A stretch of 63,927 nucleotides of DNA, the filler included, from Pseudomonadota bacterium (GTDB lineage Bacteria; Desulfobacterota; Desulfobacteria; Desulfobacterales; JBDRRP01): the NCBI GenBank assembly GCA_043825735.1. It is 7 parts of 7 records of this genome, joined end to end, with 100 filler letters (N's around TTAATTAATTAA, not from the genome) between each part and the next. Parts side by side here need not be neighbours in the genome. Positions count along the whole stretch, not along the records: positions 6,975 to 28,611 come from JBDRRP010000012.1; 6 more parts are not named here. The stretch is one strand, 5' to 3'. Of the stretch, positions 6,875 through 44,178 are shown one piece after another. How positions within the stretch are numbered: position 1 is the first letter of the stretch; every line of letters starts with the position of its first letter. The position numbers were made by a program, and so were the translations under genes. The notes under the pieces are model-generated. The model searched no databases and was not told the DNA's origin. It worked only from the letters and a program-made list of their open reading frames with translations.

Positions 6875-6974
6875 NNNNNNNNNNNNNNNNNNNNNNNNNN
6901 NNNNNNNNNNNNNNNNNNTTAATTAATTAANNNNNNNNNNNNNNNNNNNNNNNNNNNNNNNNNNNNNNNNNNNN
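6875..6974. other. Artificial contig linker; identical linkers at 28612-28711, 36861-36960, 47546-47645, 57420-57519 and 60461-60560
   Basis: 100-nt spacers of N with a central TTAATTAATTAA (stops in all six frames). Confidence 0.98.
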
Positions 6975-9900
6975 CGGTACTGTCGGCGTGAAAGTAAACG
7001 TACCACCGTCGGCGGTGACGGCTCCTGGCACGGCCACATCAATGCCGCGGGTGATGACGAAGCTGTCGATGACTGCCGCAGTGTCGATGCTGCCGTGGGC
7101 GTCGGACAGGGTGAAGGTAACCAGACTGGCTTCTTTCAAGACGGCACCGCTGGCCGGCACTGTACCGATCAGCACCGGCGGCACCACGTCGAGGATCTCG
7201 GGCATTGCCGCCTGGCGGATGTTGTTGCTCTCGTCGATTTCATCGACCACTGCGCCGCTGTCAGCCGTCGCCTGGATCGTATGGATGCCGATCAGCGATG
7301 TCCAGGTCTGACTGACCTGAACGCTGCCACCGGCAGCGACGGTCTGACTGACGGGCTGGGCGCCGATACCTGCGCCGTCTATCAGAAATTCTACCTGGAA
7401 GGGCACTTCCACCGGGCAGGTGCTGTTGTTTTGAATAACGGCGGTAAAAGTAATTTCCTGGCCTGCCTCGGTCGCCGGGTTTGGCGTCCAGGCGATATCG
7501 GTTACGACCAGGTCGGGTTTGAAAGCAGTGAACTGCCATACGGGTCCGGAAGTTTCCTGCCCCCGGGCATCACGGGCGACAACCCGCCAGTAATAGGTGC
7601 CGCCCTTGGTCAGATCGCCCTTCGAATAGTTCATCGTGCCGAGACTGTCTGCGATCCTGGCAATACCCGCTTCGGTGGTACCGAAATACAGGTCGTAGAC
7701 CAGCACATCATTGGGATCCGAATCACCGCCGGTCCAGGACAGGGTGACGGCGCCACCGGTCAGCGGAACGTCGGCAGCTTCGTGGGCGGGTTGGGGCGCC
7801 GAAGGTGTATTCGGCAGCGTATCAACAACAAAGGAGAAACTATACGCCTGGGTATTTCCGGCATTGTCTTTCGCGGTTAGGGCGACGGTGTAGGTGCCCC
7901 CTGACAGAGACCCGCCGGCCGGCGTAAAAGTGAACACATCATCGGACTCGATCACCGCTCCGCTTACGGCGGCGCCACCATTGGTAACGGCGATGCTGCC
8001 GATGACGGCCGCATCATCCACACTGCCGTAGCTTTCGGACAGCGTGACGACGATCTGGTTCGCCTGCTGCAAGAGGGCGCCGTCGGCCGGGTTGGTGCTT
8101 TGAAGCGCCGGGGGCGTCGTATCCAGAATGCCGGGCAGGGTTGCAGTGAGCGCATTGTTGCTTTCATCGATTTCGTTGACAGCCGCACCGCTGTCGGCCG
8201 TCGCCTGGATGGTATGAATACCGGTCACGCTCGCCCAGGCCTGGGTGAGCTGCACGCTGCCGCCTGCGGCGATGGTCTGGCTGACGGTCTGAGTGCCGAT
8301 GCCGGCACCGTCGATCAGAAATTCGATATCAAAGGGAACTTCTACCGGGCAATTCCCGCTGTTTTGCACAACGGCGGTAAAGGTCACCGCCTGACCGGCT
8401 TCGATATCGGCTGCCGGTGTCCAGGTGAGATCGGTCACGACCAGGTCGGGTTTGAAGGCGGTAAACTCCCATACGGGACCGGTAGACTCCTGCCCGTAAC
8501 TGTCACGGGCCACACTCTGCCAGTAGTAGCGGGTGCCCTGGCTGAGATCGCTCTTCGAAAAAGTCGTGGCACTGATGCTGTCGGCAACCTTGGATAGGCT
8601 CACCGCTTCAGTACCGAAATACACGTCGTAGACCACCGTATCGGTGGGGGTGGGATCGCCACCGGTCCATGAAAGGACGACCGATCCGCCGCTGAGCGGG
8701 ACTTCAACGGCCTCATGGGCCGGATCCGGTGCCGACGGAATATTGGGGGGACCGTCCACGATAAATGAGAAGCTGTAGGCCTGGGAATTTCCGGAATTGT
8801 CCCACGCGGTCAGCGTGACGGTGTAAGTGCCGGTGTCCAGCGGTTTTGAAACGGGATTGAAGGTGAATACGTCGTTGGCCTCGGTCACCTCGCCGCTCAC
8901 ACCGGCGCCGCCGGTTGTCACTGCAATGCTGCCGATGACAGCGGCGTCATCCACACTGCCGAAACTCTCGGACAGGGTGATGACGATCTGCTCCACGTCC
9001 TGCAACACGGCACCGTCTGCCGGGCTGGTGCTCAGCAGGGCAGGGGGCGTCGTATCGCGGATTTCGGGCATGGTTACCATGCGCGAGTTGTTGGTTTCGT
9101 TGACTTCATTGACTGCGCCGTATACATCGGCCGTCGCCTGGATGGTGAACAGGCCGAGCTGGCTCGCCCAGGTCTTGGTGACCTGCGCACTGGCGCCCGC
9201 GTCGATGGGCTGGCTGACGGTTGTCGTGCCGATGCTGAGACCGTCGATTGAAAAGTCCACCTGAAAGGGGACTTCTACCGGGCAACTACTGTTATTTTTG
9301 ACAACTGCGGTAAACACCACCTCGTGGCCGGCTTCAATATCGACGGCCGGCGTCCAGCTAAGATCCGTCACGACCAGGTCGGGTTTAAAGGCGGCGAATT
9401 CCCAAACGGGCCCGCCTTTCTCATGCCCAAAACTGTCACGGGCGACAATCTGCCAGAAGTATTTCGTTCCCTGGGTGAGATCGCCCTTTGAATAAGTTGA
9501 CGTGGAAATGCTGTCGGCAATCTTGAAAAGGCTCCCGGCTGCGGTCCCGAAATACACATCGTAGACCACCGTGTCGGTGGGAGTGAGATCGCCCCCGGTC
9601 CATGAAAGGACGACCGATCCGCTGCTCAGCGGGACCTCAACGGCCTCATGGGCCGGATTCGGCGCCGAGGGAATATTCGGCGGGCCGTCAACGGTAAAGG
9701 AGAAGCTGTAGACCTGGGAATTTCCGGAATCGTCCCACGCGGTCAACGTGACGGTGTAGGTGCCGGCATCCAGCGGCGAGGGGGTCGGGGAGAATGTAAA
9801 CACATCGTTGGACTCGGTCACCTCGCCGCTCACACCGGCGCCGCCGTTTGTCACGGCAATACTGCCGATGACAGCGGCATCATCCACACTGCCGTAGCTT

Positions 9901-12900
9901 TCGGACAAAGCGAAGACGATCTGGTCCACCTGAAGCAACACGTCGCCAACGGCCGGAGCGGTGCTTTGCAGGGCCGGCGCTGTCGTGTCCAAAATATCAG
10001 GCATGGTTTCGCTGTCGGCATTGTTGCTTTCATCGGTTTCATCGATCGCGGCACCGCTGTCTGCCGTTGCCTGGATTGTATGGATGCCGATCACCGTCGA
10101 CCAGGTCTGGTTGACCACCACACTGTCGCCGGCGGCGATCGTCTGGCTCACGGTCTGGACGCCAATGCCGACGCCGTCGATAAAGAATTGTACCTGGAAA
10201 GGATCTGCGACCGGACAAGTGCTGTTGTTTTGGACAACGGCGGTGAATGTCACCTCCTGACCTGCTTCCGTTGCCGGTGCAGGTTCCCAGGAGATGCCGG
10301 TCACCACCAGGTCGGGTTTATAGGTGGTAAATTGCCACAGCGAGCCGGCGGTCTCCTGCCCCCGGGCATCCCGGGCGATAACCTTCCAGTAATAGCGTGT
10401 TCCCGGGCTTAGCGCGTTCTTTGAAAATGTCGTTGCGCTGAGACTGTCGGCGACTTTGGTGATGCCCGCTTCCGTAGCCCCGAAATATACATCATAGACC
10501 AACACGTCATTGGGATCCGAATCGATACCGGTCCATGACAGCGTTACGGCGTCACCGCTCATCGGGACTTCAACGGCCTCATGGGCCGGGTCGGGATTGG
10601 AAGGAATACTCGGCAGCGTATCTACGATGAAAGAAAAACCATACGCCTGGGCATTTCCGGCATCGTCGGTGGCGGTCAGGGTAACGGTGTAGGTGCCGCC
10701 CGGTAGAGACCCGCCGGCTGGCATGAAGGTGAATGCATCATTGGACTCGGTCACCGTTCCGCCCACGCTGCCACTGCCGTTAACAACGGCGATGCTGCCG
10801 ATGACGGCCGCATCATTCACACTGCCATAGCTTTCGGAAAGGGTAATGACGATCTGCTCACCCTGCTGCAACAGGGCGCCGTCGGCCGGGCTGGTGCTTT
10901 GCAGCGCCGGGGGCGTCGTGTCGGCAATAACGGGCATGATTGCGGCGCGTCCGTTATTGCTTTCATCGATTTCATTGACGGCGGCGCCGCTGTCGGCGCT
11001 TGCCTGGACGGTATGAATACCGGTCAGGCCCGCCCAGGTCTGGCTGACCTGAACGCTGCCGCCCGCGGCAATGGCCTGGCTTACCGTCTGGGCACCGATA
11101 CCGGTGCCATCGATCATGAATTCGACATAGAAGGGAATCGCTACCGGACAGTTGCCGCTGTTTTGGACAACGGCGGTAAAGGTCACCACATGACCGGCCT
11201 CGATATTGATGGCCGGTGTCCAGGATAGATCTGTCACGACCAGGTCGGGCCTGAAAGTGGTGAACTGCCATACGGGTCCGCTGGTCTCATGGCCGAAACT
11301 GTCACGGGAGACAATCTGCCAGTAGTAGTGTGTGCCAGGGGTCAACGCGGTCTTCGAATAAGTCGCGGCGCTGATGCCGTCAGCAACCTTTGTGAGGCTT
11401 CCGGCCTCGGTCCCGAAATACACATCGTAGACCAACGGATCGGTGGGAGTGGGATCGCCCCCGGTCCACGACAGTGCGGCGGATCCGCTGCTCAGCGTGA
11501 CTTCAACGGCCTCATGGGCCGGATTGGGAGCCGAAGGAATATTCGGGGGGCCGTCCACGATAAAGGAGAAGCTGTAGGCCTGTGAATTTCCGGAATCGTC
11601 CGTCGCAGTCAGCGTGACTGTGTAAGTGCCGGCCGCCATCGGTTTTGCAGCGGGATCGAAGGTGAAAACGTCATTTGATTCGGTGACAGCGCCGGAAACC
11701 AGATTACTGCTGCCATCCCTGACCGCGATGCCGGCGATTACGGCGGCATCGTCCACTTCGCCTTCTGCGTCATGAAGGGTGATGGCAATCTGATTGACTA
11801 TTGCTGATACGGAACCGTCGACAGGCGCGGTGCTTTGCAAGGCGGGCGGGGTGGTATCTTCTACCACGAATATCAGGTCCAGATACCCCACGTTCCCGGG
11901 GCCATGGACATGCATCGGGAATACCCGTTGATAGTTGGTCCCATCGCCGATCTGCCCGTAACCATTGTTCCCCCAGGCCCATACCGTTCCGTCCGACTGA
12001 AAGGCCATGCTATGAACAGATCCCCCGGCGATGGCAATCATATCCGTGAGATAAGAAACCTGGACGGGAACGCTTTGACTCATCGTCGTTCCATCGCCAA
12101 GCTGTCCGTACCAGTTTCCCCCCCAGGCCCATACCGTTCCGTCCGACTTGAGCGCGAGACTGTGATAATCTCCGCCGGCGATGGCGACCACACCCGTGAG
12201 GCTGGAAACCTGGACCGGGACCGGTCCATCACCTTCCCCCCAGGCCCATACCGTTCCGTCCGACTTGAGCGCCAGGCTATGATAATAGCCTCCGGCAACG
12301 GCAACAACACCTGTGAGATTGGAAACCTGAACGGGGGTCGTTCTGGTTGTCGTCGTGCCGTCGCCGAGTCGGCCGTCATAATTGTAGCCCCATGACCATA
12401 TCGTTCCGTCCGACTTGAGCGCCAGGCTATGAGAATAGCCTCCGGCGATAGCAATCACATCTGTGAGCGCAGAAACCTGAACGGGGGTCGTTCGATATTC
12501 CGTCGTCCCATCACCGAGCTGACCCTCATCATTGTAGCCCCAGGACCACACCGTTCCGTCGGATTTGAGCGCCAGGCTATGCGCATAGCCGCCCGCGATG
12601 GCAATTGCATCCGTGAGATCGGAAACCGGGCCGGGGGTCGTTCGATATTCCGTCGTCCCGTCACCGAGCTGACCGTATTCGTTGTACCCCCAGGACCATG
12701 CCGTCCCGTCCGACTTCAGCGCGATGGTATGCGCATATCCGCCGGCGATGGCAATTACATCCGAGAGGTTTGAAGCCTGAACGGGAGAGGTTCTGGGAGT
12801 CGTCGTTCCATCGCCAAGTTGCCCCGCTTCGTTCCGACCCCAGGACCAAACCGTACCGTCCGAATTGAGCCCTATGGAATGATAAGCGCCTGCAGCGATG

Positions 12901-15900
12901 GCGGGCGGTTCGCTCGTCGCGGGAAGACCCGTCAGGCTGTTCACGACAAAGGAGAAAGTATCGGCCCGGGTATTTCCGGCCATGTCTTTTGCAGTCAGTG
13001 AGACGTCGTAGGCGCCTTCCGCCAGTGGCCTTGCAGCGGGGGTGAAGATGAATTTATCGCTTGATTCCGTCACTGTCCCGGGCACGGTGCCGCCGCCAGT
13101 TGTCACAACAATACTACCGATAACGGCATCGTCATCCACAATGCCGTCGTTGTCATACAGGGTGATGACGATCCGATTGACAATCTTTAATGTGGACCCG
13201 TCGACCGGGGCGGCGGATAGCAGCTCGGGCGGGGTGGTGTCTTCAGCGGGCGGTGTTAATACCAAATACTCCCCATCGTCCTGCCCATGGACCTGCACTG
13301 GGATTGGGCTTAATTCATATGCTCCGTTCCCTAACTGCCCGGCCCAATTGCCCCCCCAGGCCCAGACCGTTCCGTCGGACTTAAACGCAAGGTTGTGATT
13401 TCCGCCGCCGGAGATGGCAACCACATCGGTGAGATTAAAGACCTGAGTGAGGGTCGTGTCAAAATACACCCACTCCCCATCATTAGGAGGAATGGAATAA
13501 CCGGCCCCCCATGCCCATACCGTTCCATCCGATTTAAGCGCGATGCTATGACTATATCCGCCAGCGATGGCAACCACATCGGTGAGATTAGAAATCTGGA
13601 CAGGTGCCGCTCCGTCTACGACCTCCCCATCACCGAATTCTCCCTCTTTTAATTCCCCGCCGCCATACTCCCCGTCGCCAATGCCTCCCCAAGTCCATAC
13701 CGTTCCGTCGGATTTAAGCGCTATGGAATGATAACTGCCGCCGGCGACGGCGACAATATCCGTGAGGCCGGAAACCTGGACGGGTGTCGAGCTGTCTGTC
13801 ATCGTCCCGTCACCCAGCTGGCCGCGGTCATTGGCTCCCCACGCCCATGCCGTGCCATCCGATTTAAGCGCCAGGCTATGATGATCTCCGCCAGCGATGG
13901 CCATCACATCTGTCAGATTTAACACCTGGGTGGGCGTCGTGTTAAAGTAAAACCACTCCTCCCCGCCGGGTTGAATGGAATAGTCGACTCCCCACGCCCA
14001 TACCGTTCCATCGGATCTGAGCGCCAGGCTATGGAATTCACCTGCGGCGATGGCAACCACATCTGTCAGATTTGAGGCTTGAACAGGGTCTGGGCTCTCG
14101 TCTCTCCTCCCATCGCCAAGTTGACCGAAATCATTATCCCCCCAGGACCATACCGTACCATCCGACTTTAGCGTGATGGTATGGTCACTTCCGCCCGCGA
14201 TGGCGATCACTGCAGATAGATTCGACTTCTGGACGGGTATCGTATGATATGTCGGCCCCCCCTCCCCGCCATAAAGGTCGGGAAAATCGCGTCCCCAGAT
14301 CCACACCGATCCGTCCGTATCCAGCATTATGGACTGTTCTCTTCCTGCAGCTATCGCCGGTCTCTCGGCGTTTTCGACAATGGCCAGTACCGCCGTGCCG
14401 GGGCTGCCCAGGGCGGCGCCGCCGACCGGGTTTGCCAGGGACACATTAATCGTCTCGATCCCCTCGGCATATAAATCGTTGAAAATCTTGACGGTGAACG
14501 TCTTGCTTTCTTCTCCTTCGGTAAATGTCAGCGTTCCTGCGGCAGCCGTGTAGTCGACTCCGGACTCGGCGGTGCCGTCACTGACTTGATAATCGACCGC
14601 AACCGTTCCAATGGTGCCTCGGGTGCGCAACACGGTGACATCGATGCGGCCGCTGTTCTCATCACCCAAATAGGTGGCCGTACTGAATTGCAAAATGCCA
14701 GGTCCGCTGTCGACGACGACGATCGTATCACTTCCCGAAACCCAGCCGGCCGCCGAAGCCGTGACGGTCACAGTTTGGTCTCCGTCGACCTGCGCGTCAT
14801 CGATTATCGTCAGCGAAAAGGCGGCCGACGTCTGTCCGGCCGGAATGGTTACGGTGTCCGGAACCGTAATTTCAGAAGTATCATCGGAGGTCAGATTGAC
14901 GACCAGGTCCAAGGGGTAAGTGCCGGCAATGGATACCGAAGCAACGGATACCTGGCCGTCGCCCTCGATGGCGCTGTCGGGAATTGTGACAGTCAAATTC
15001 AGGGTTTCGTTGTCCTGAACCCTGACCAGGCCACTGGCGCCGGTCCAACCTGCAACCGATGCCGTGATGGTTGCCACCTGATCGCCGTCGATCTCGTTGT
15101 CGTCGATAATGGTCAGATCAAATGTGGCCGAGGTCTGCCCTGCGGGAATGATCATGGTTTCGGGTACCGCGACTTCACCGGTATCATCCGAACTTAAAAA
15201 AACAGTCACGTCTTCATCGACAGGGGTGCTGACCGTCACGGTGCCCTGCCCTGAAAGCAGGCCATCGCCTTCGGAAGCACTGAGCGGCACATCCACGCTC
15301 AATGTGGCGGTTTCATTGTCATGCACCGTAATCATCGCCGTGCTGGAACCGAACCCAGCGGCTGACGCCGAGATCGTCACCGTTTGGGAGCCGTCAAGCC
15401 ACGCATCGTCCACAATGGTGAGATCAAATGAGGCGGATGTCTGACCCGCCAAGATGGTTACGCTGGCCGGCAGCGTGACTTCCGAAGTATCGCCCGAGGA
15501 CAACGATACGGTCAGGTCTACGGAAGGCGCAACATCGACCCTGACGAGACCCTGCCCGCTGAGAACGCCATTTCCTTCTGCCGCGCTTTGGGGAATAGCA
15601 ATGGAAAAGGGGATGAGGTTCAGAAATCCCACGTCTTCGAAACCATGAACTTGCACTGGGACTAGACGGCTGTCGCCATCGCTTCCGTCACCGATCTGGC
15701 CAGCCCAATTGTCTCCCCATGCCCATACCGTGCCGTCCGGCTTAAGGGCGAGGTTATGATAACCTCCGCCAGCGACAGCGGTGACATCTGTTAGGTTAGA
15801 AACCTGAACGGGTATCGCACTACCTGTATCCGTCCCATTGCCAAGCTCACCGTCCCAATTCGCTCCCCAGGCCCATACCGTGCCGTCCGACTTGAGCGCT

Positions 15901-16805
15901 ATGATATGAGAATCACCGCCAGCGATTGCAGCGATATCTGTAAGATTTAAAACCTGAACAGGGGTTGTTCTGTTTGGTGCGGGCCCATCACCACCCTCAC
16001 CATCTTCACTATACGCCCACCCCCAGGACCACACCGTACCGTCCGACTTAAGCGCGGCGGTACTATTATACCCTGCCGTGATAGAGATAACATCTGTGAG
16101 ATTTAGAACCTGGACGGGCGTCGCACTCTCATCCGTAGAGCCATTACCAAGTTGGCCATAATAATTGTACCCCCAAGACCATACCGTTCCATCGGATTTG
16201 AGCGCTATGCTATGCCGTCCGCCCCCCGCCACCGCAATAATATCTAAGAGGTCAGGGACTTGAGCGGGTATCGCTCTATAATTTGTCTCATCATCGCCAA
16301 GCTGCCCACTGTAATTATCCCCCCAGGTCCATACCGTTCCATCCGATTTGAGCGCTATGCTATGATAATCACCGCCAGCGATTGCTATGACACCAGTAAG
16401 ATTTTGAACCTGAACGGGACTCTCGCTATTCTCATATTCGCCATTACCAAGTTCGCCTTCTTCACCGTACCCCCAGGAAAATACCGTTCCATTTGATGTG
16501 AGCGCTAATGTATGTTCCCATCCGCCGGCGATGGCAACAACATCTGTGAGACCTGAAACCTGGACGGGCGTCGGGCTATCTGCTGGCGTCCCATCACCAA
16601 GCTGCCCACTATAATTGGCCCCCCAGGTCCATACCGTTCCGTTCAATTTGAGGGCAATGGAATGATCGCCGCCGCCGGTGATGGCCGGCGCCGCGGCATA
16701 ATTCTTCTGAACCCATATCCCTTGCAGGATCATGAAGGTAAAAAATGCGGCTACAAAGACCGTCAGCTGTCTTGATTTGACCGATTGGCCGGCAAGGTGC
16801 GCCAT
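6975..16805 (-). CDS. Giant secreted protein (>3270 aa, C-terminus missing): three RCC1 propellers, Calx-beta, Ig-like, Fn3-like and CARDB repeats
   Basis: Signal peptide; many [24 protein letters not shown] repeats; Calx-beta (LQFS..VTVLRT.G..GTL.F..GE); five PDLVVT CARDB modules; AGGAGA RBS before the ATG at 16805. Confidence 0.9.
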
Positions 16806-17123
16806 GGTTTCAGTTCTCCTGAAAAAGTACACGTCCTGTTAGACAATTACTTCAAAATATAAAAAGTACTGGATCCTCGTCTTCCGCCTTCGCCAAGGCT
16901 TCGGTGGACAAATCGCGGGGACGATACTGCCCGGAATGCCGGGCTTAAAACCTAACTGGATGCCGGATCGGGGTCCGGTATGACAACCTAAAACCTTTTC
17001 TGGATGCAGGCCTTCGGCGGGCGGGGGTAAACCCCGCCCCTACATTTTCAAAGGTACCGGGCAGCGTAGGCCTCTGTTTGAGGCGCCCCCTCCCCTGGCC
17101 CCTCCCGCAAGGGGAGGGGGAAA

Positions 17124-17927
17124 TCACGGTTGAATTGTCTTTGACGAAATACCTGCGCTTGGCGGCACGATGCCGCAGCCGGTGCAGGATTCTCTTTTCG
17201 TTTCTTTGGCGGCCGGATCGTTCAGCAGCGCCATGTGCTTTTGATATTGGCCGTAGCCTGCCGCGCCGCCGGTTAAAAACAGCGCGTCCCCTGCCCCGGC
17301 GTTCTCAATGACGGTCAAAATCTTCACCGCGTCGTTGCCTTTCGGGGTGACGATGAGCAGCGGCCTTTTAAGGCCGGCCAGGGTCTTTCGGATGGCGGCG
17401 GCATCTGTCAACGGCAGGTGCCGGGCGCCGGGAAACAATGCTTCGGTATCGGCATCCCGCCGGGGGGAGACATCGACGACCACCCAGCCGGCAGCGGATT
17501 TCTCACGGTCGTAGTCGCCGGCCGAGATCTGCCGGTAGCCGGCCAGAAGGCTCAGATCACCGGTGAGCGGGGCGCCGCTTCGGTGCCAGGCGGGGAGTCC
17601 GCCGTCCAGCACATAGGCGCGGGTGCCCTGGCGCTTGAGCTCGCCGCAGGCGGTGAGCGGGGCACTCAAATGAATGCCGTCGGTCACCATGACTACCGTT
17701 TTCTTCTTTAAAAACGTCTTGGTCCGGATGAACGCGGGGGCGATATTGATGGATCCGGGGATGTGAAGGGTCTCGAACTCTGCGGCCGGTCGCACGTCCA
17801 CGAGCTGGACGTCCGGCTTTCGCTTTTCTATGACGTCTTTCACCGATACGCGGTAGTCGGCGGCGTTCGCCAAAGGAACGCTTATCGCCCAGACGATGAG
17901 GGCGGTTATGATGTTTTTAAAAATCAT
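17124..17927 (-). CDS. Exported tandem rhodanese-like domain protein
   Basis: Signal peptide ending ANA; LVDVRP..F...HIPGSINI and YVLDGGL.AW; second degenerate domain; C-terminal CTGC. Confidence 0.8.
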   Translation of the reverse strand: MIFKNIITALIVWAISVPLANAADYRVSVKDVIEKRKPDVQLVDVRPAAEFETLHIPGSINIAPAFIRTKTFLKKKTVVMVTDGIHLSAPLTACGELKRQGTRAYVLDGGLPAWHRSGAPLTGDLSLLAGYRQISAGDYDREKSAAGWVVVDVSPRRDADTEALFPGARHLPLTDAAAIRKTLAGLKRPLLIVTPKGNDAVKILTVIENAGAGDALFLTGGAAGYGQYQKHMALLNDPAAKETKRESCTGCGIVPPSAGISSKTIQP

Positions 17928-17986
17928 TATCGCAAAACCTTTTCTGGATACCGGCGTTCGCCGGTATGACGAGCTGAAAACCATCA

Positions 17987-18201
17987 TCTCGCGCAGAGGC
18001 GCAGGGACGCTGAGAACTGCTAATCAAGAATTAAAAAATGAACTTCCAACATCGAACGTTGAACGCTGAACATCGAATGTAAAACCCATAGACAGCCACC
18101 AGATAGAGTCTTTCGCTGTTCGTTTTTCATTCATCCTTCGACGTTGGACGTTCGATGTTCGACGTTCGTTTTTCTCTGCGCCTCAGCGCCTCTGCGCGAG
18201 A
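17987..18201. repeat. Nested palindromic element, copy 1
   Basis: Outer arms TCTCGCGCAGAGGCGC / GCGCCTCTGCGCGAGA; inner inverted heptamer arrays (AACATCG)n / (CGATGTT)n. Confidence 0.9.
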
Positions 18202-18458
18202 AATCTCTTTTGGTTTTCTTGGCGTTCTTGGCGTCTTTGCGCGAGTCATCGGTTTTCGCTGTTTCTGTCATCCCGCCGGAAGGCAGGGGTCCAGAGGTAG
18301 CAAAAACCTTCCGGATACCGGCCTTCCGCCTTCGCTATAAATAGCTACGGCGGACAGGTCGCCGGTATGACGAGCTAAAACCCAGTGAAACCAACACCCC
18401 TTTCATCCGCAGATGGCGCAGATTAGAAGGATTAGCGGCCTGCGGCCGCAAACCATAA

Positions 18459-18663
18459 TCTCGCGCAGAGGCGCAGGGACGCTGAGAACTGCGATCAACA
18501 TGAACTTCCAACATCGAACGTTGAACGCTGAACATCGAATGTAAAACCCATAGACAGCCACCGGATAGAGTCTTTCGCTGTTCGTTTTTCATTCATCCTT
18601 CGACGTTGGACGTTCGATGTTCGACGTTCGTTTTTCTCTGCGCCTCAGCGCCTCTGCGCGAGA
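18459..18663. repeat. Nested palindromic element, copy 2 (direct repeat of 17987-18201)
   Basis: Near-identical to copy 1 apart from a net 10-bp indel region and a few substitutions. Confidence 0.9.
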
Positions 18664-18730
18664 AATCTCTTTGTTCTTTCGTCTTCCCGGCCCCGTTTTG
18701 CAACGGGGTAAACTGCGGCCGGAATCCAGT

Positions 18731-21700
18731 CTACTCCGTCGGAATATCCACCGGCAGGCTTGCGCCGCCGGTGACGGTGACTGCCGGCGACCAGAATTGC
18801 TGGCCGCCGAAGTCGGCCCGGAACTTGTACGCTCCTGCCGGCAGCACGAAGGCCACATGGCCTGCGGCGCCGGTCAGGGCGTTCTGGTTGAGATAGCTGC
18901 CGGCGCCGGTAAAGACGTAGACCCGGGCGTTTTCCACCCCGACTTCTCCCTGCAGGACGATCACGTCGGCCTCGCCGTGGGGGATGGAGACGGCGACGTT
19001 CTGCTGGTTGAAGCTTGCCGACCAAAACTGCTGGCCCATGTAGTCCGCCCGCGCCTTGTAAAGGTTGCCCGGCAGGCTGAAGACCACCGTGCCCTCGGCA
19101 CTTGTGATCAGGTTCTGATTCTGGTAGGCGCCGCCGGCGGTGAAGAGATAGACCCTGACCCCGGCCAGCGGCTCGGCGGCAAGGTGGTACTTCTCAATGG
19201 AGACGGAGACGTCCTGGTGCGCGATGGTGAAGACATTGGACAGCGTCACCGGAACGTCAAACACCGAGGTCCAGTACTGGTAGCCCAAATGGTCCACGCG
19301 AATCTTGTAGCTGCCGTCAGCCAGGGGAAAAGAGACCTGCCCCTCGCTGCTGGTGACCTCGTTTTTACCAAGATAGGCCCCGCCCGCTGTAAAAACGTAG
19401 CAGCGAGCGCCCGTCAGCGGCGTGTTTTCACCTCTGAGCACGGTGAGGGCAAAGGTGCCCCCGCCGGTGTTGACCTCCACCGGATTGTCCATATCCGCCG
19501 CAAGGCTCTGCGGGCTGCTCCAGAACTGGCTGTTCTGGTAGTCGGCTCTAAAATTGTAGTCGCCGGCCGGCAGCCGGAAGACAACCTTACCGTTGGCAGC
19601 GGTGGGCGCGTTCAGATTGAGATAAGCCCCGGCTCCGGTGAAGACGTACACCGGCACTCCGGCCAGCGGCGCCCCGCCGCCGGTGACGGTGATGGTGGCA
19701 TCGGCCATAGGCACGTCCACCACAAAGTCTTCACCGGTGACCTCCTGCGACCAGAACTGCTGCCCCATGAAGTCGGCGCGCACCTTGTAGGCCTGCTCTG
19801 GCAGATAGAAAGCAGCGGTGCCGAGAGAATCTGTCGGCACCACCCGGTTCTGGTAAGCGCCCGCGGCGGTAAAGAGATAGAGGTTCACCCCCGCCAGCGG
19901 CGTGCGCACCCCGTCGTAAAGACCGCTCACCGTGGCCGTGGCCATCTGGTGGGCGATGGTAAACTCGGCGGCCAGCGCGGCGGGCACTGCGTGGTCATTG
20001 GTCCAGAACTGGTAGCCCAGATAGTCCACCCGAATGTCGTAGACGCCGCTGGCCAGATCGAAAGTGACCACCCCCTCGCTGCTGGTGGGACCGAACATGC
20101 CGAAATAGGCGCCGGTATCACTGAAGACGTACGCATTGACGCCCACCAGCGGGGTGTCGGCATCCTTTTTAACGGTGAGGGCGAATGTGCCGCCGCCGGC
20201 GGTGATGGCGACCGGGTTGGCCACGCCGGCCGCAAGCGTTGCCGGATCGCTCCAGTACTGGCTCGCCTGGTAGTCGGCGCGGAATTTGTACCCGGTGTCC
20301 GCCGGCAGGCGGAACGTTACATGACCGTCGCCGTCGCTGGCGGCAGTGAGATTCAGATAGGCCCCGGCCTCGGTGAAGGCATAGACCGGCACCGCCGGCA
20401 GGGTGATGGTGCTCCAGCCCACGGTGATAACCGCATCGGCCATGGGTATATCCACGTCGGCGTTTTGGGCGGTAAAGACCGGCGACCAGAACTGCCCGGC
20501 CAGGTAGTCGGCCCGGACCTTGTAGGCCCGCTCGGGCAGGTGGAATACGACCTGGCCGGCGGCATCGGTGGTGAGATGCTGGTTCATGTAGGCGCCGGTC
20601 TCGGTGAAAAGATAGGCCTTCACGCCGGCAACCGGAGTGGCCTGGGCCATCACGCCGCTGACCTCCACGGTGACGTCCTGGTGGGGGATACTCAGGTCCA
20701 CGGTCGTGTCGGTGGCAACCAGGGCGTCGGCGCTCCAGAACTGGTAGCCGAGATAGTCGGCGCGCACCTTGTAATTTCCTTCGGGAGTCAGAAAAGCCAC
20801 CCGGCCGTTGGCGTCGGTGACCAGGTTCTGGTTCAGATAGGCGCCGGCAGCGGTGAAAAGATAGACCCGGGTGCCTTCCATGGGCAGGCCCGGAGCTTCC
20901 TGGACGGTGACGGTAAAGGTGCCCCCGCCGCTGGCCACCTCGGCCAGGTTGGCGCCGGCCGCGCTCACGGCGATCTGGCCCCAGTACTGGTGGCCCATGA
21001 CGTCCGCCCGGAATTTAAAGGTGCGGTCCGTGGGCAGATCGAACGTCACCTGCCCGTTGGCATCGGTGAGCACGTTGATGCCAAGATAGGCGCCGGCCTC
21101 GGAGAAGAGGTAAATCCGCACGCCGGCACCGTCGCCGGCTCCGGAGACATCGACGGTGACCGTTTCTTCGGCGATCACCAGAGAGACCGTTGCCACGGGA
21201 AGCAGTGTATCGGCCGACCAGAACTGTCCGCCCAGATAGTCGGCGCGGAACCGGTAGCGGCCTTCGGCAAAATCTTCGACCAGAAAAACGGCCGCGCCGG
21301 TTTCATCCGTGACGGCGTTTTTACCGGTGTAGGCGCCGGCTTCGGTAAAAGCGTAAATTCTGACGCCGGAGAGCGCGCGGCCTTTGTCGGTCGTTACATT
21401 GACGGCGATCTGCGCGGGCTCCAGAGTGCTCAGATCGCGGATGAACAGCGCCGCGGCCGCCGACCAGTCGCCTGCGGCGCCAAGGCTGTCTTCAGCCCGC
21501 ACCCGCCAGTAGTAAAGGGTGTTGTTTTCAAGGGCCGGGTCTGCCTGCCAGGCGGGCGTTGCCGCCGCCCCGGAGGCTACGGGCAGCAACAGGTCGGCAT
21601 CGGCGAAGACTTCGAAGGCGTAGGTGACCCCATCGCCCTCCGGATCCAGGGCCGGGGCCGCCTCGAGAAGCGGTGCACTGGCCGAGGCCCAGGCGCCGTT

Positions 21701-24496
21701 GCCCGGGTTTTTGACCACCGGGACCGCCGGGGCGTCGTTGGCCGGATTGACAAAGAACTGGCCCGTGGCCCAGGCGCTGCCCGCGGCGCCGTCATGGGCG
21801 CGCACCCGCCAGAAATACAGCGTATTGTCAGAAAGATCCGCAGCGGTAAAAGTGGTCTGGGCAGCGGTTTCTGACACAGGATCGAAAGATTGCCGCTCCG
21901 GGCCGGCGAAGGTGGCGGTGGTATCGATTTCAAAGATGTAGACAAGGGATGCCCCTTCGGGGTCGACGCCGTTGCCGGCGACAAGCGTGACGGTGGTATC
22001 GGCCACCTCGGTGCCCGGCAAGGGGCCGGCAATCACGGGCGCGGACGGAGCGGCGTTGGTGGTGTCGACGGTGAATGCGACAAGGGCGGTCGCCGTGCGG
22101 GCGCCGGAGGGATCTTCGGCTATGGCGCGCCAGTAGTATGTGGTCTGGTCGCTGAGGGCCGTGGGCACGGTCCATCCGGTGGTGCCGCCGGCCCCGGCCG
22201 GAAGGTTCGTGGCCCAGACCACGGCGTCCGCGGCCTGATCATCGGCAAAGACCTCGAAATAATACACCAGGGCGTCGCCGTCGGCATCGCTCGCATTGCC
22301 CACTTCGAGATACGGCGTCAGGCTGTCGACGGCATCGCCGGCGGCGGGCAGACTGATCACCGGAGCGCCGGGGGCGTTGTTTCCGGTATTGACGGTAAAC
22401 TCCCCGTAGACCCAGGCGCTGTAACTGTAACCGTCACCGGCCCTGACCCGCCAATAAAAACTGTGATTGTCTTCGAGTTCTACAGGCAGCGGCCAGGCGG
22501 TGAGGCCGGCGCCTTCGGCAACATGGCCGGCAGCGGCCACCGATTGAGTGAGCCGGTGATCGGCAAAGACCTCGAAATCATAGGTGAGCGCGTCGCCGTC
22601 GGCATCGGTGCTGTTGAAGACCGTCAGTGACGGCAGGGTACCGGTCACCACGCTGCCGATGGCCGGCAGCGAGATCACCGGCACGCTCGGTGCGTGGTCG
22701 ATGGCCCCGGGGTTCGTTCCCAGGCGGAATTCCAGAAGATCGGAGATCCCGTCGCCGTCGAAATCGCCGCTGCCGTCTCGCTCCAGAGAGCCGAACCGGG
22801 CCTGCTCCCAGGCGTCGTCCATGCCGTCGCCGTCGGTGTCGTCGGCAGGGAAAATGGTGACGCTGATGCGCCGGGTGGCTTCAAGTGCGCCGTCCGTGGC
22901 CGTAAAAACGATGCTGTACCCGCCGGCCTGCCCGATAGTCGGGGTCCACGAAAAGGTGCCCGTGCCGTCGCCGTGGTCGGCGAAACCAGCGCCTGCCGGC
23001 AGCGGCGCTGCGGTAAGCGCCGGCACCGTGCCGTCGGCGTCGGTGGCCGCGACATTGATCGTAAAGGGCTGGGTCTCCACCCCGGACTGATCGGTCAGGG
23101 TGGCCAGCACCGGGGCGCTGGCCGGGGCGCTGTCGTCAAAGACCACGGTGTAGGCGCCCGTTGACGCGGCATCGAAAAGGTTGAAAAAATGCTGCCAGCT
23201 GTGGTCGGCGAGCCGGGTCTTGGAAAGCCAGGCGTTATCGGTTTTGATGATTTTTCCGTCCGAGCGCACCACGCTTTTGATGCGGCGCGCGCCGCCGCCC
23301 GGATCGGGCAGCACTGCGACCAGAAAGCCCGGGCCGGGTGCGCTCACCTGGAGGCTGTAGCGAATCTCGGTGCCGGACTGGTTTAGCAACTGGAGCGCCG
23401 CGCCGGTCGAGACGTCGGTGACCTCGGACTCGGTGCCATTTGACTCAAAAACCCGGAAGATGGGGCTGTCGGGGTTTTCCTTGGCCAGAAAATCGCGGAC
23501 CACGTCCCGGCCGGGAAGATCCACCAGCACGTCGCGGACGAGAAAATGGGTGTGCAGGTTTTCCTGCCGAATCAGCGAGGTGAGCTGCCCGCCCAGCGCA
23601 TCGGCGTGGGAAAAGCCGGCGGAAAAAGACTCGAAGGTGCCGCTCAGCGAGCAGGTCATGATCCAGCGGGCCATGCCGGCCGCGCCCGGGGCGATGTCGC
23701 CCAGCGCGACGTTGAGCCGGTTGGGGGCGATCGCGCCGTTGACCTCGGAGCCCGTAATGACAAAACCCACAAGCAGTCCCTGCTCGTTTTCCACGATGCG
23801 CGGCTGGCCCGAATCAATGGCCAGGTTCTTGGCCGCCCCAAAGCCCGTGTTCTTGACCCGCAGCCCCAGGGAAAAGGGAACCGGCGGCTCGGTGACATCG
23901 GCGGTGAAGGCGTCGTCGCCGTAGACGTCGTGGGGTAGAAAATAGTCGAGCACCAGCTCGGGCATGGGTTTGACGAAGATATAGTCCGGGGTCACCTGGG
24001 TGGTGTTTTCCTCCCCGCCGATTTCGTAAGTGAGAGTGGCCCCCACGTAGAACATCTTACCGTTGAGGATGCCGCCGGAGGCCCCCGGCACAGGGATGAT
24101 GCGCCAGTGGATGTCGGCCGAAGTGGACGGGGCGATCTGGCCACCGCCGTCGACATCTGAGATGTTTTCCATGGTGTCGATGGCGATGAAAAATTTGTGG
24201 CCGGTGGCCTCGGGATCGGCATCAGGATCGCTGGTGGCAGTGACGACGTTGCCGTCGGCATCGGAAAAATTCACCGCCACGTGGATGCGGTCCAGGGTGA
24301 TATGGGCCAGCCCGTTGTTGATGCGCATGTGGGCGTCGAAGGCCTGCCGCTCCAGGGTCAGCTCCTGGGCGATCTCGATCTTCACCTCGGCGCAGACCGA
24401 GTCGTCTGCGGCCGATGCCGGGGCGGGAAGCCACCCGGCGGTGAAGCAGATCAGTGCAGCGGCCAAACACTTTACGATTCCGGAAATCTTGCCCAT
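18731..24496 (-). CDS. 1921-aa secreted multidomain protein: uncharacterised N-domain, Ig domain, Ca-binding DxDGDG repeats, four Fn3-like domains, eleven carboxypeptidase-regulatory/CnaB-like repeats
   Basis: Signal peptide ending ASA; DTDGDGMDDAWE; 4x AP..PV...P..G; 11x VY.FT.AGAY..G.V.F.L...YK.RADY.G.QFW. Confidence 0.88.
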   Translation of the reverse strand: MGKISGIVKCLAAALICFTAGWLPAPASAADDSVCAEVKIEIAQELTLERQAFDAHMRINNGLAHITLDRIHVAVNFSDADGNVVTATSDPDADPEATGHKFFIAIDTMENISDVDGGGQIAPSTSADIHWRIIPVPGASGGILNGKMFYVGATLTYEIGGEENTTQVTPDYIFVKPMPELVLDYFLPHDVYGDDAFTADVTEPPVPFSLGLRVKNTGFGAAKNLAIDSGQPRIVENEQGLLVGFVITGSEVNGAIAPNRLNVALGDIAPGAAGMARWIMTCSLSGTFESFSAGFSHADALGGQLTSLIRQENLHTHFLVRDVLVDLPGRDVVRDFLAKENPDSPIFRVFESNGTESEVTDVSTGAALQLLNQSGTEIRYSLQVSAPGPGFLVAVLPDPGGGARRIKSVVRSDGKIIKTDNAWLSKTRLADHSWQHFFNLFDAASTGAYTVVFDDSAPASAPVLATLTDQSGVETQPFTINVAATDADGTVPALTAAPLPAGAGFADHGDGTGTFSWTPTIGQAGGYSIVFTATDGALEATRRISVTIFPADDTDGDGMDDAWEQARFGSLERDGSGDFDGDGISDLLEFRLGTNPGAIDHAPSVPVISLPAIGSVVTGTLPSLTVFNSTDADGDALTYDFEVFADHRLTQSVAAAGHVAEGAGLTAWPLPVELEDNHSFYWRVRAGDGYSYSAWVYGEFTVNTGNNAPGAPVISLPAAGDAVDSLTPYLEVGNASDADGDALVYYFEVFADDQAADAVVWATNLPAGAGGTTGWTVPTALSDQTTYYWRAIAEDPSGARTATALVAFTVDTTNAAPSAPVIAGPLPGTEVADTTVTLVAGNGVDPEGASLVYIFEIDTTATFAGPERQSFDPVSETAAQTTFTAADLSDNTLYFWRVRAHDGAAGSAWATGQFFVNPANDAPAVPVVKNPGNGAWASASAPLLEAAPALDPEGDGVTYAFEVFADADLLLPVASGAAATPAWQADPALENNTLYYWRVRAEDSLGAAGDWSAAAALFIRDLSTLEPAQIAVNVTTDKGRALSGVRIYAFTEAGAYTGKNAVTDETGAAVFLVEDFAEGRYRFRADYLGGQFWSADTLLPVATVSLVIAEETVTVDVSGAGDGAGVRIYLFSEAGAYLGINVLTDANGQVTFDLPTDRTFKFRADVMGHQYWGQIAVSAAGANLAEVASGGGTFTVTVQEAPGLPMEGTRVYLFTAAGAYLNQNLVTDANGRVAFLTPEGNYKVRADYLGYQFWSADALVATDTTVDLSIPHQDVTVEVSGVMAQATPVAGVKAYLFTETGAYMNQHLTTDAAGQVVFHLPERAYKVRADYLAGQFWSPVFTAQNADVDIPMADAVITVGWSTITLPAVPVYAFTEAGAYLNLTAASDGDGHVTFRLPADTGYKFRADYQASQYWSDPATLAAGVANPVAITAGGGTFALTVKKDADTPLVGVNAYVFSDTGAYFGMFGPTSSEGVVTFDLASGVYDIRVDYLGYQFWTNDHAVPAALAAEFTIAHQMATATVSGLYDGVRTPLAGVNLYLFTAAGAYQNRVVPTDSLGTAAFYLPEQAYKVRADFMGQQFWSQEVTGEDFVVDVPMADATITVTGGGAPLAGVPVYVFTGAGAYLNLNAPTAANGKVVFRLPAGDYNFRADYQNSQFWSSPQSLAADMDNPVEVNTGGGTFALTVLRGENTPLTGARCYVFTAGGAYLGKNEVTSSEGQVSFPLADGSYKIRVDHLGYQYWTSVFDVPVTLSNVFTIAHQDVSVSIEKYHLAAEPLAGVRVYLFTAGGAYQNQNLITSAEGTVVFSLPGNLYKARADYMGQQFWSASFNQQNVAVSIPHGEADVIVLQGEVGVENARVYVFTGAGSYLNQNALTGAAGHVAFVLPAGAYKFRADFGGQQFWSPAVTVTGGASLPVDIPTE

Positions 24497-24634
24497 CGGA
24501 TGCCTCCGGGGAAACGGTATTGGAATTATGTGACTGCTTATAAACGGCGCTGGGTGCCGGTTTTAATTCTTCTGGTTACTGGCGTTCCGCCGGTATGACG
24601 ACCGTAAAACGCCGTGAAACCAAAACCCTTTTCA

Positions 24635-25525
24635 TTACAGCGCCGCCATGCGGGCGATGACGCCTTCGGGTCCCTCGATGTGAAAGCGCTCAAAGGGGGC
24701 CGGCTCGGGACCGAAAAGGCGCATGGCGATGTAATTGGACTGATCGGCAGTAAATACGCGGTTGAACGGATCGGCGATCTGCCAGAGCGTTCCGTCAAAA
24801 AACAGCGCCCAGTTGTGATAGCGCTCCGGGCCGATCACCGCATCCCGGTCACTCACGTATCCGGCAACCCCGCGGGCCGGAATGCCCGCCCCGCGGCACA
24901 GCGCCGTAAACAGGTACATGTATTCGGTGCAATCGCCGGTCCCGGCTTTCAGCGCAAAAATGGCGCCGCGGGCGTTTTTCGTATAGCCGGCTGGCTTGAG
25001 ATTCCCGGAGACCCAGTCACTCGCCTTGCGGGCCGTTGCCGAGATGCTGCCGGCGACCAGCTTTCTGGAAATGGCTGTCAGTTCAGTGTTGTCGGATTCG
25101 ATAAAAGGCGCCGGCTGCCTCGTGTCCGGCCCCGGCGACACCCCGATCGCTCCGGGCTGCGCAGCCATCATGAGACGGGCGCTGACGGTGACCAACCGGG
25201 TGGCATAGGGGGGAAGCCGATCGATGGTGAACACGAGCACTTGGTTGCCCAGATCGTCCACCGTCCGCTCAAAGGGAAGATTGGCATCCAGCGCATCGCA
25301 GCGTTGCGTGGCGGTCTGCTTCACCGGCGCCCTGAGCGACAGGCGCACGTTTTGCGCCAGCCGGTTGGTGGTGTTTTCCACCGCGCAGCCGTATCGAATC
25401 AGGCGGGAAATAGTGTATTCGGCAGCGGGAACTGATTGATTCAGCGTTTTGAAATAGAGAAAACCGCCCCCCGCGAGCGCAATGAGAAGCGCGATAGCAC
25501 CGATACCCCATCGTTTCTTGTTCAT
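24635..25525 (-). CDS. Membrane-anchored/exported transglutaminase-like protein
   Basis: N-terminal hydrophobic helix; triad GDCTE (Cys), YHNWA (His), IADP (Asp); LCRGAGIPAR. Confidence 0.88.
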   Translation of the reverse strand: MNKKRWGIGAIALLIALAGGGFLYFKTLNQSVPAAEYTISRLIRYGCAVENTTNRLAQNVRLSLRAPVKQTATQRCDALDANLPFERTVDDLGNQVLVFTIDRLPPYATRLVTVSARLMMAAQPGAIGVSPGPDTRQPAPFIESDNTELTAISRKLVAGSISATARKASDWVSGNLKPAGYTKNARGAIFALKAGTGDCTEYMYLFTALCRGAGIPARGVAGYVSDRDAVIGPERYHNWALFFDGTLWQIADPFNRVFTADQSNYIAMRLFGPEPAPFERFHIEGPEGVIARMAAL

Positions 25526-25559
25526 TCTTCGGTCGTTTCCGTAAAACATCGAAAAGTCC

Positions 25560-25672
25560 GTCATCCCGGCGAAGGCCGGGCTCCAGGGAAGTGCGAAAAG
25601 CTTTCTGGATACCGGATCGCGTCCGGTATGACGGCCCAAAAGCTTTCTGGATCCCGGCCTTCGTCGATATGA
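25560..25672. repeat. Cluster of REP-like palindromes (CTGGAT.CCGG..CCGG.ATGAC family)
   Basis: Three copies here; related copies near 16870, 16957, 17000, 17944, 18267, 18312, 24573, 26329, 26415, 28577 and 32889. Confidence 0.8.
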
Positions 25673-26020
25673 CAGAAAAAAGCGGCATCCGAATTTACTG
25701 AAAAAGCCATCAACCAAAGCATGCAGGTCTGCCGTGAGGGAGTCTCTCGATCGACACGCGCACCTCTCCTGCATGGGTGCACCACTGCTGCGGCCCACGC
25801 CGCCGCCGGCATCGCCCGTTTGCCCGATGCGTCTATCGTTCGCCCGAATGATTTACGACTTGCGCAATTTCGGCGGATGGAACCGGATACTTCGCCCCTT
25901 CATGGTTCCAGCGCACCGATCCGTGGAGAAAAAAGCTTAAGCAACTGACCAAACCCGGGTGTTCAAGTCAAGCACTATTTTTTGACTCCTGGCGCGGGCA
26001 CGGTCACTGTTTTGTACAAG

Positions 26021-26037
26021 TACAATTACCGTGCCAA
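26021..26037 (-). promoter_or_regulatory. Putative sigma54 (-24/-12) promoter
   Basis: Minus strand TTGGCAC-GGTAA-TTGTA versus consensus TGGCAC-N5-TTGC. Confidence 0.6.
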
Positions 26038-26084
26038 ATTTTGCCTCATGTATTTTCAGTGGGTTACATGAAAGCGCCGCTAAA

Positions 26085-26125
26085 ACGTGCACAGAAAACT
26101 GTGCACGTGCACTGATTTCAGTGCA
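26085..26125. promoter_or_regulatory. Two tandem palindromes TGCAC-N8-GTGCA, candidate activator sites
   Basis: ACGTGCACAG-AAAA-CTGTGCACGT and TGCACTGA-TT-TCAGTGCA, about 50-90 bp upstream of the -24 box. Confidence 0.6.
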
Positions 26126-26446
26126 TAAAGGAATGCAAGAAAAAAATGGACCCCTCTCCCCAAAAATGGCGTGATTGGGTAGGGGGATCGCATTCGAGGG
26201 GCCACGGGGGGGCGCTTGGTACGCAACAACGAAACCGGGATCATCTCCCAAAGCGTTGGTCGATGAATAGGGGCCGGTTTGAACGGATCAAAAAACTGTG
26301 AAGTTTCGCAAGACTGTTCGACACCCCATCTGGATCCCGGATCTCGTTTCACTCGTCCGGGATGACGGAAAAAAAAAGAACCGCCTTTTCGCGAATGCAT
26401 CAACCTAAAATCTTCTGGATACCTGCCTTCGCCGGTATGACAACCC

Positions 26447-44112: not shown

Positions 44113-44178
44113 AATGAACCCCATTAAATTTCGTCTTCACTTTGGCAATCGGCCATCGAGCGGAACTCCGATTCAACG

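Follow-up and report, generated by a model that had tools for sequence, protein, structure and literature searches.

A conserved four-gene locus of Desulfobacterales, apparently an undescribed variant of Rhs polymorphic-toxin systems

Four genes in a row on one contig

We analysed a stretch of 63,927 nucleotides (hereafter the window) from a bacterium of the order Desulfobacterales (assembly GCA_043825735.1, 160 contigs, G000 below), in which separate contigs are joined end to end by runs of N. On one of these contigs, C12 (window 6975-28611), four genes follow each other on the minus strand, coding for a transglutaminase-like enzyme (TG), a 1921-aa protein, a rhodanese-like protein (RHO) and a giant hereafter named the carrier. 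A sequence-only reading of this DNA had described four co-oriented genes within about 19 kb, and this arrangement was confirmed on that strand of a single contig. Its domain description was also accurate according to Pfam (PF01841, Ig/Fn3, PF00581 and RCC1/CARDB, respectively). A hydrophobic N-terminal stretch was found in all four proteins (best Kyte-Doolittle value over 15 residues between 2.2 and 2.4, a measure of hydropathy only and not a SignalP prediction). The export signals formerly assigned to all four hold to this extent, that of TG resembling an uncleaved anchor.

TG (24635..25525, minus strand, 296 aa from its ATG, PF01841 with E 4e-15) starts with this hydrophobic anchor or signal. 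The Cys-His-Asp triad noted as intact in the first reading is indeed so: C199, H237 and D252 are invariant in 52/52 aligned homologues. TG thus has the feature of the transglutaminase-like superfamily, i.e. this triad within the PF01841 core, and aligns with structures 3ISR and 6G49. From its sequence, the enzyme looks active.

The 1921-aa protein (18731..24496, minus strand) is composed, according to Pfam, of an export signal, a domain named N450, an Ig/Fn3 stalk and carboxypeptidase-regulatory-like repeats. It had been said to lack a known anchor, and no C-terminal anchor was recognised: its last 150 aa gave no match to NCBIfam models. No anchor was general either among 67 sequences of N450 proteins (the window protein's tail, 59 of 71 locus tails and 7 proteins chosen by eye), among which one PEP-CTERM and six choice-of-anchor U were found. 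N450 itself (23120..24406, minus strand, aa 31-459) is modelled by AlphaFold2 as three beta-sandwiches with free N-terminal strands (predicted local distance difference test, pLDDT, 91). It contains an invariant Cys, and is the predicted docking head of the protein. The family to which it belongs is large and has no name (2,811 clusters at 50% identity), and N450 sits directly after the leader in nearly all of the top 150 matches, which have very different tails. A sequence search of the PDB gave no match, a fold search gave generic beta-sandwich matches only (best Z 7.9), and a search of the ESM Atlas gave unnamed clusters only.

RHO (17124..17927, minus strand, 267 aa) was described as a tandem rhodanese-like protein. 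It does have the exported tandem PF00581 fold; the correction is that the Cys of the rhodanese active-site loop, which is catalytic, is missing. In the column aligned to the Cys of 3NHV, RHO has Thr82, and Cys is found in 0/32 homologues (N 21, D 6, S 2, T 1, H 1, G 1), so that we discarded an active sulfurtransferase. A C-terminal CxxC (C248-x-x-C251 in RHO) is present in 29/32 homologues.

The carrier (6975..16805, minus strand) is seen over its N-terminal 3,277 aa, without a stop codon. It comprises an export signal, three RCC1 propellers, Ig/Calx-beta domains, five Big_5-Fn3-CARDB units of 311 aa and the start of a sixth Big_5. The first reading gave it more than 3270 aa, which is correct, with the precision that the frame is open because the contig stops at 6975: the DNA on the left, beyond an N-padded junction (6875..6974), belongs to an unrelated contig, C10.

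A conserved system and its Rhs-bearing relatives

The distribution of the four genes was examined in 201 genomes drawn evenly from the order. For the carrier we used midCD, the last 390 of about 1,800 residues that are conserved after the stalk in relatives' giants. N450 was found in 38 genomes, midCD in 33, TG in 30 and RHO in 26. Among the 38 N450 genomes, 29 had TG, 29 midCD and 23 RHO, as compared to 1, 4 and 3, respectively, of the 163 genomes without N450. TG and N450 were on the same contig in 26 of their 29 shared genomes, and two genomes (G117 and G203) had two copies each of all four genes. Using N450 as a bait, as the sequence-only reading had proposed, TG was found in 55 and RHO in 34 of the best 80 of 103 loci; among 34 loci of at least 15 kb, they were present in 23 and 21. 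Gene order varies from locus to locus, and junctions are frequently tight (L040, L041, L060). The genes therefore do co-occur (TG in 29/38 vs 1/163 genomes), and form one conserved system. Named species carrying it include Desulfobotulus alkaliphilus (L033), Desulfoluna spongiiphila (L081) and Desulfosarcina cetonica (L060), and the N450 bait also reached Thiotrichaceae, Verrucomicrobia, Lentisphaerales, Elusimicrobia and Nitrospirae. No fifth conserved gene, such as an outer-membrane exporter or a sensor, was detected among 644 non-core neighbour open reading frames (ORFs), in which only giant N-termini and RAYT-like (REP-associated tyrosine) transposases recur. A neighbouring efflux gene (OEP, 26447-28228) was rejected as a member, as it does not recur beside the relatives' loci.

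In relatives, the giant has a variable N-terminal stalk, then the 1,800 or so conserved residues, YD repeats, an Rhs core and a genome-specific tail. The midCD bait found 194 metagenome loci. In the best 80 of these, Rhs was in the same frame in 63 cases, in the next frame in 9 and further on in 1, the contig ended too soon in 6, and one had no Rhs; hence Rhs is present in 73/74 informative loci. RHS repeats were recognised by Pfam in L034, L087 and L039, and PF05593/PF03527 in orthologous giants. Rhs is encoded apart from the giant in five loci (L169, L179, L187, L189 and L190), by a gene that has a hydrophobic leader of its own.

Tips of at least 40 aa were collected from midCD-bearing giants (55 out of 76 listed tips of that length). 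They form 50 clusters, with a median of 152 aa, and 28/55 have at least 4 Cys. Ten match Pfam: phospholipase A2 (PLA2, twice), SLT (lytic transglycosylase), CHAP (a match under its cut-off), Ntox10, PT-HINT (four times) and AMOP. What follows the tip in the 74 loci is a small ORF (55), a core gene (12), a large ORF (2) or nothing (5), and orphan core cassettes are found in 6/74. Genes for RAYT-like transposases adjoin the module in 15 related loci, often just past the Rhs tip (e.g. L130:13327-14118).

Evidence on how the two giants might be joined came from 74 long N450 proteins (3,311-5,000 aa): midCD lies upstream in the same chain in 64, two are permuted and 8 are split. Internal N450 is always preceded by midCD (64/64), the two being separated by a passenger of 80-580 aa, Cys-rich in most cases. 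Fused forms include proteins of Rhodopirellula, Pontiella and the leech Helobdella. Two proteins, P0102 (7,485 aa, three copies of the module) and P0164 (Helobdella, 4,650 aa), have an animal-type fused midCD-passenger-N450 with basic RxKR-like sites after midCD, and P0102 also has a C-terminal hydrophobic segment. P0162 and P0175 are circularly permuted: a single chain of 3,850 aa has N450 at its start and midCD close to its C-terminal end. By eye and without alignment, a similar Cys-Cys beta-rich domain was noticed in the L102 tail, in the P0188 passenger and in the tips of L138, L153, L174, L111, L189 and L144, which suggests that passengers and Rhs tips are exchanged.

The AlphaFold model of midCD (pLDDT 88) shows PapD-like and transthyretin-like domains, a protruding hairpin and an Ig domain. 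Fold searches gave generic PapD/ASH and transthyretin-like matches, and barely covered the residues beyond 213. A Gly-Gly-Gly-Cys linker in midCD was considered as a simple release site, an idea weakened by the hairpin that follows it being modelled within the fold. The AlphaFold check on pairs suggested by the first reading was run on the docking parts of the giants of one relative, L034. Its cognate midCD and N450 were predicted to form a complex, with an interaction prediction score from aligned errors (ipSAE) of 0.87, the best of 3 controls being at 0.00. The mark set for this score was reached by 116/157 solved and 2/215 mismatched pairs, counts that apply only roughly to these alignments. 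The complex has 255-277 contacts, of which at least 94% agree between runs, and partner pLDDT is at least 86. Since searches of PDB sequences with midCD and N450 gave no like structure, recall from a solved complex is unlikely.

In this predicted complex, residues 1-33 of N450 are the pairing partner of the midCD hairpin (residues 211-242). Conservation is higher in interface columns than in the remaining ones (0.82 vs 0.67, and 0.80 vs 0.62). When the window N450 is compared to that of L034, 70/92 predicted-interface residues are identical, vs 171/321 elsewhere (76% vs 53%); judging from these residues, the docking face is retained in the window copy. Two Cys lie inside the predicted interface, N450 Cys5 (79/79) and midCD Cys346 (88/95), and the model would allow a disulfide between them.

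A proposed display mechanism and its alternatives

The part of the carrier in which Rhs would be expected is beyond the contig end. When aligned to 9 complete relatives, its last domain falls directly behind their final CARDB, and these relatives extend 3,529-3,743 aa further. By this alignment, the giant of this copy would run on for some 3,500-3,750 aa, through midCD and an Rhs shell to a tip, and its full length would be about 6,800-7,000 aa. In a quick tree of 57 hand-picked rows, the window N450 is sister (Shimodaira-Hasegawa-like approximate likelihood ratio test, SH-aLRT, 99) to those of L049 and L051, where gene order is the same and the giants (5,270 and 5,303 aa) end in Rhs; the wider clade (99) holds 30 Rhs-type and 3 Rhs-less rows. 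Sequencing depth in the probable source run, X1, is 45.8 at the contig end and 25-33 in most bins. Across a stretch that is single-copy in G000, a second contig has 6 differing sites, and in X1 two contigs overrun the ends of that stretch (positions only). The doubled depth and the second contig fit an assembly break at a repeat. The retained docking face of the window N450 likewise points to a continuation as in relatives.

Two other Rhs genes of G000 were rejected as the continuation, having no midCD and different N-termini. In the Rhs frame on C145 (75500-82399), which has a transposase just upstream, the YD repeats are parted from the core by an insert of about 890 aa, made of repeats that share 49% identity with those at the C-terminus of the 1921-aa protein. 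The one on C50 (70749-81013) is a separate gene that bears a signal and is accompanied by an orphan core cassette, a RAYT-like transposase and, downstream, a small gene. Its N-terminal part may belong to the inactive-transglutaminase type.

We consider it fairly probable that the operon is a Sec-exported, two-chain display system for an Rhs polymorphic toxin, and that the whole of the following mechanism applies to this copy. The four proteins would be exported by the N-terminal hydrophobic stretches visible in their sequences. The RCC1/CARDB giant would be an adhesive stalk carrying a swappable toxin tip in a Rhs shell, its CARDB units leading, as they do in relatives, to the 1,800 or so residues ending in midCD, then to YD repeats, Rhs core and a tip of about 150 aa. 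The long beta-hairpin of midCD is predicted to join the first 33 residues of N450 strand to strand, and the Cys5-Cys346 disulfide may lock the pair. Such docking would rebuild, across two chains, a module that is single-chain in Planctomycetes, Verrucomicrobia, other bacteria and some animals. Both stalks might then hold the Rhs shell off the cell until a neighbour is contacted. RHO, a dead rhodanese with a CxxC, could aid folding or disulfide formation in the Cys-rich linker and tips, and such a helper role is the likeliest one for it from its residues. No outer-membrane route is encoded in the locus. A general secretin system would be the default guess, and elsewhere in G000 five secretins score over the cut-off, along with one type VI secretion system (T6SS) sheath gene.

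TG plausibly acts on the giants. Tethered to the membrane, this Cys-His-Asp enzyme would mature the assembly in the periplasm by acyl transfer, and we rank cutting or ligation of the carrier/Rhs chain above bulk cross-linking. It is likely a maturation enzyme at the junction of carrier, Rhs and partner, by cleavage or ligation. As TG is kept both where Rhs is a separate chain and where it is fused, a simple release protease or a simple carrier-Rhs ligase would each be only a partial description. TG is missing from the 20-kb windows of the Rhs-less split loci L193-L197, and absent from all but one of seven genomes with a distant type of N450; in the remaining one, G019, a TG-RHO pair lies at the end of another contig. 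TG may track either the Rhs cargo, or the need for acyl-transfer chemistry in split systems. L197, which has no TG and no visible Hint motif, and L045/L102 match neither option perfectly.

Several observations weigh against the display mechanism, or against its application to this copy. Searches by tblastn and hidden Markov models of all 160 contigs of G000 found no midA, midB or midCD, and the window's own giant has no midCD, Rhs or tip within the assembly. The predicted complex is that of a relative's pair and not of the window's own. Nine of the 38 N450 genomes lack midCD, two of them being near-complete (G124 and G138); the locus is decayed in the former, and in the latter an N450 protein of 660 aa stands alone, so that decay does occur. 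The midCD bait was taken from Rhs-type giants, which favours an Rhs outcome. There are split loci without Rhs (L102, L183, L193-L197), and the 3 Rhs-less rows in the window's own N450 clade are split loci of this kind. Among tips, 45/55 had no match in the Pfam scan, and in 12/74 and 5/74 loci the tip lies directly before a core gene or before nothing. Among the downstream small ORFs, 0/49 scanned match a named immunity family (57 were listed, of which 8 spurious-looking or transposase-derived were left out). Finally, as profiles and alignments were built from the same loci and genomes are related, the co-occurrence figures are counts rather than a statistical test.

Three alternatives seem unlikely to us, to the same degree. 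According to the first, the enzyme cross-links both giants into an adhesive fibre or matrix, and the Rhs tip is incidental. This is close to the sequence-only reading, of which one part stands, namely a single system with an enzyme plausibly acting on the giants, whereas a matrix as the main function does not: relatives' giants end in a Rhs shell and a hypervariable tip, and a specific head-to-middle docking is predicted rather than a cross-linked mesh. Both proteins do consist mostly of adhesin-type repeats, the TG triad is invariant, and the fused and Hint-bearing forms without Rhs indicate that the docking module can work Rhs-free. Against cross-linking stand the Rhs that follows midCD in nearly all informative loci, the hypervariable tips, and the absence of TG from the Rhs-less L193-L197 windows and from distant-type N450 genomes except G019.

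The second alternative, of similarly low probability, is that the giant is truly truncated or decayed here, the locus being a remnant or a plain adhesin pair. The missing downstream part, the repeats filling the intergenic gaps, and the decayed loci in near-complete relatives (G124/L015, L048, G138/L036) would agree with it. Still, no stop interrupts the frame up to its last base, none of the four genes is broken, the docking face is conserved above the rest of the domain, and depth doubles at the contig end.

Just as improbable, in our opinion, is that variable tips are displayed for kin recognition or adhesion rather than killing, as in animal teneurins. The many unannotated or Cys-containing tips, the small ORFs without a named immunity family and the animal proteins P0102 and P0164, which keep the fused module, are all compatible with this, and signalling is left open for bacterial teneurin-like proteins in the parts of PMC13018210 covered here. 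Annotated tips, however, are phospholipases, cell-wall hydrolases, Ntox10 and pre-toxin Hint, and orphan cassettes with small downstream genes are the pattern of polymorphic toxins.

A broader proposal, which we hold as doubtful but somewhat better placed than these three, is that midCD-N450 is an ancient cargo clamp, kept from bacteria to animals, which frames a variable passenger, with TG as the dedicated ligase of split Rhs loci. One-chain forms would keep the passenger peptide-bonded to N450 (in the two animal proteins, after the basic RxKR-like sites). Split forms would remake the link, either by a C-terminal Hint (four Rhs-less loci) or by the stand-alone TG (Rhs loci). If this is true, TG would assemble a toxin-display fibre of about 9,000 residues outside the cytoplasm, with the help of a dead rhodanese. 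In the Rhs-less L193-L196, the giant closes with a short passenger and then a Hint domain, beyond which hardly any sequence remains; the N450 gene and a divergent rhodanese come next.

Upstream of TG, the first gene, lies a sigma-54-like -24/-12 promoter element (26021..26036, minus strand), and further up are two 18-bp palindromes of the TGCAC-N8-GTGCA type (26088..26125, minus strand; 26125-26108 and 26105-26088), candidate sites for an enhancer-binding activator. The same palindrome arrangement is found upstream of TG in L014 and L019. The sigma-54-like site was found in 5/42 upstream regions of relatives vs 8/840 random 900-mers, with a pattern fitted after seeing this site. With 2.5 sites expected, a scan for sigma-70 promoters gave 1. 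Coverage by two RNA runs from the same study was almost nil, and speaks neither way on expression.

Palindromic repeats resembling repetitive extragenic palindromes or miniature inverted-repeat transposable elements (REP/MITE) occupy the gaps between genes (16860-18672, 24570-24608, 25557-25676 and 26321-26441). Those at 17973..18672 are duplicated, and the repeats of the gaps include a 176-nt unit present twice at a spacing of 462 nt. Such repeats are also present on other contigs, and are outside the system. An Rfam scan of the locus gave no match. On other contigs of the window, we noticed a broken reverse-transcriptase frame surrounded by pieces of group II introns (Rfam RF00029, RF02005; 57806-59750, C24), a tetratricopeptide (TPR) repeat gene with 120-nt tandem units, apparently split over two frames (42114-44124, C18), and, by eye, helicase-like and PglZ-like frames on the unrelated C10 (261-6830), possibly a defence locus of the bacteriophage exclusion (BREX) type.

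Comparison with known systems

The first reading knew of no characterised system of this composition, and none was found: full-text literature searches, covering the main texts of openly available papers, turned up no account of the four-gene module.

In the LapA/LapG/LapD system, a periplasmic protease of transglutaminase fold frees a giant adhesin from the surface upon a signal. LapG-like control of this kind would account for a periplasm-facing Cys-His-Asp enzyme beside giant adhesin-like proteins and for a possible sigma-54 regulated promoter, and is nevertheless very improbable here, as the giants bear signals at the N-terminus and gave no match to RTX, neither a LapD-like sensor nor a type I exporter is recurrent among the 644 neighbour ORFs, and TG belongs to PF01841, which we take to be distinct from the Pfam family of LapG. 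The comparison with LapA and LapG made in the sequence-only reading thus fails on the features tested, and the Rhs cargo is a further difference.

Rhs effectors of the T6SS are delivered with PAAR, VgrG and EagR. The present system shares with them an Rhs core with a DPxG-type end, a variable tip, a downstream small gene and orphan cassettes, and differs in having an export signal and a stalk of 2,000-5,000 aa instead of PAAR. The window giant starts with a hydrophobic stretch and RCC1, without a PAAR match, and no T6SS gene recurs among the 644 ORFs, so that we do not count it among these effectors.

VARTIG of Thermococcales (Makarova et al. 2021, PMC8416519) is an analogy only: a large secreted Ig/CARDB protein heads a variable locus, and its description, as far as covered, includes no Rhs, transglutaminase or rhodanese.

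Closer are the Rhs toxins exported by Sec and the type II secretion system, some of which have an N-terminal inactive transglutaminase (Zhang et al. 2012, PMC3482391). As covered, they share with our system a signal peptide, Ig-type domains, RHS repeats, a variable C-terminal toxin (Ntox10, HINT) and an association with the transglutaminase fold. In that class the transglutaminase is fused to Rhs, its triad being lost; the enzyme here is encoded on its own, with the triad intact in all 52 homologues, which places the window system outside the class. The table of that paper lists no signature neighbour genes, as compared to a dead rhodanese and another giant, with its predicted docking head, in the present locus, and the words 'Rhodanese' and 'CARDB' have 0 occurrences in its main text as covered.

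The other close relatives are bacterial teneurin-like proteins (TLPs; Raoelijaona et al. 2026, PMC13018210), in which an FN-plug, NHL and a YD shell are in one chain. In the parts of that paper covered, TLPs are Sec-exported proteins of Thermodesulfobacteriota, with a variable adhesive N-terminus, a YD shell holding a small polymorphic toxin, and an unknown mode of delivery. Sec export, the variable adhesive N-terminus and a YD shell holding the tip are resemblances. The system differs by three conserved partner genes and by having no NHL propeller between midCD and the shell: Pfam detects no NHL in L034, L087 and L039, and nothing but a short Gly/Cys-rich linker lies between midCD and the first strands of Rhs. 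With NHL absent, it is not a TLP. As regards an FN-plug, the fold searches of midCD listed the generic PapD/ASH and transthyretin-like domains mentioned above. The transthyretin-like domain of midCD matches residues 859-945 of fly teneurin (Z 10.8, root-mean-square deviation 2.5, 86 aligned), one among many generic matches.

How Rhs and teneurin-like toxins with a signal peptide are displayed and released without a type VI needle is an open question (PMC13018210, as covered). To this question the locus brings a defined parts list: a carrier, a partner predicted to dock through a specific interface, an enzyme in which a single Cys can be mutated, and a helper. It is also a first lead to the function of a large pair of domains without a name (the 2,811 clusters above), present as well in giant CARDB proteins and some animal proteins. 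With N450 in 38/201 genomes and in other phyla, the system may be a common weapon of sediment and groundwater biofilms. We conclude that the system is real and conserved, and apparently a variant of Rhs polymorphic-toxin systems not described before, in which two chains are predicted to dock through a new module.

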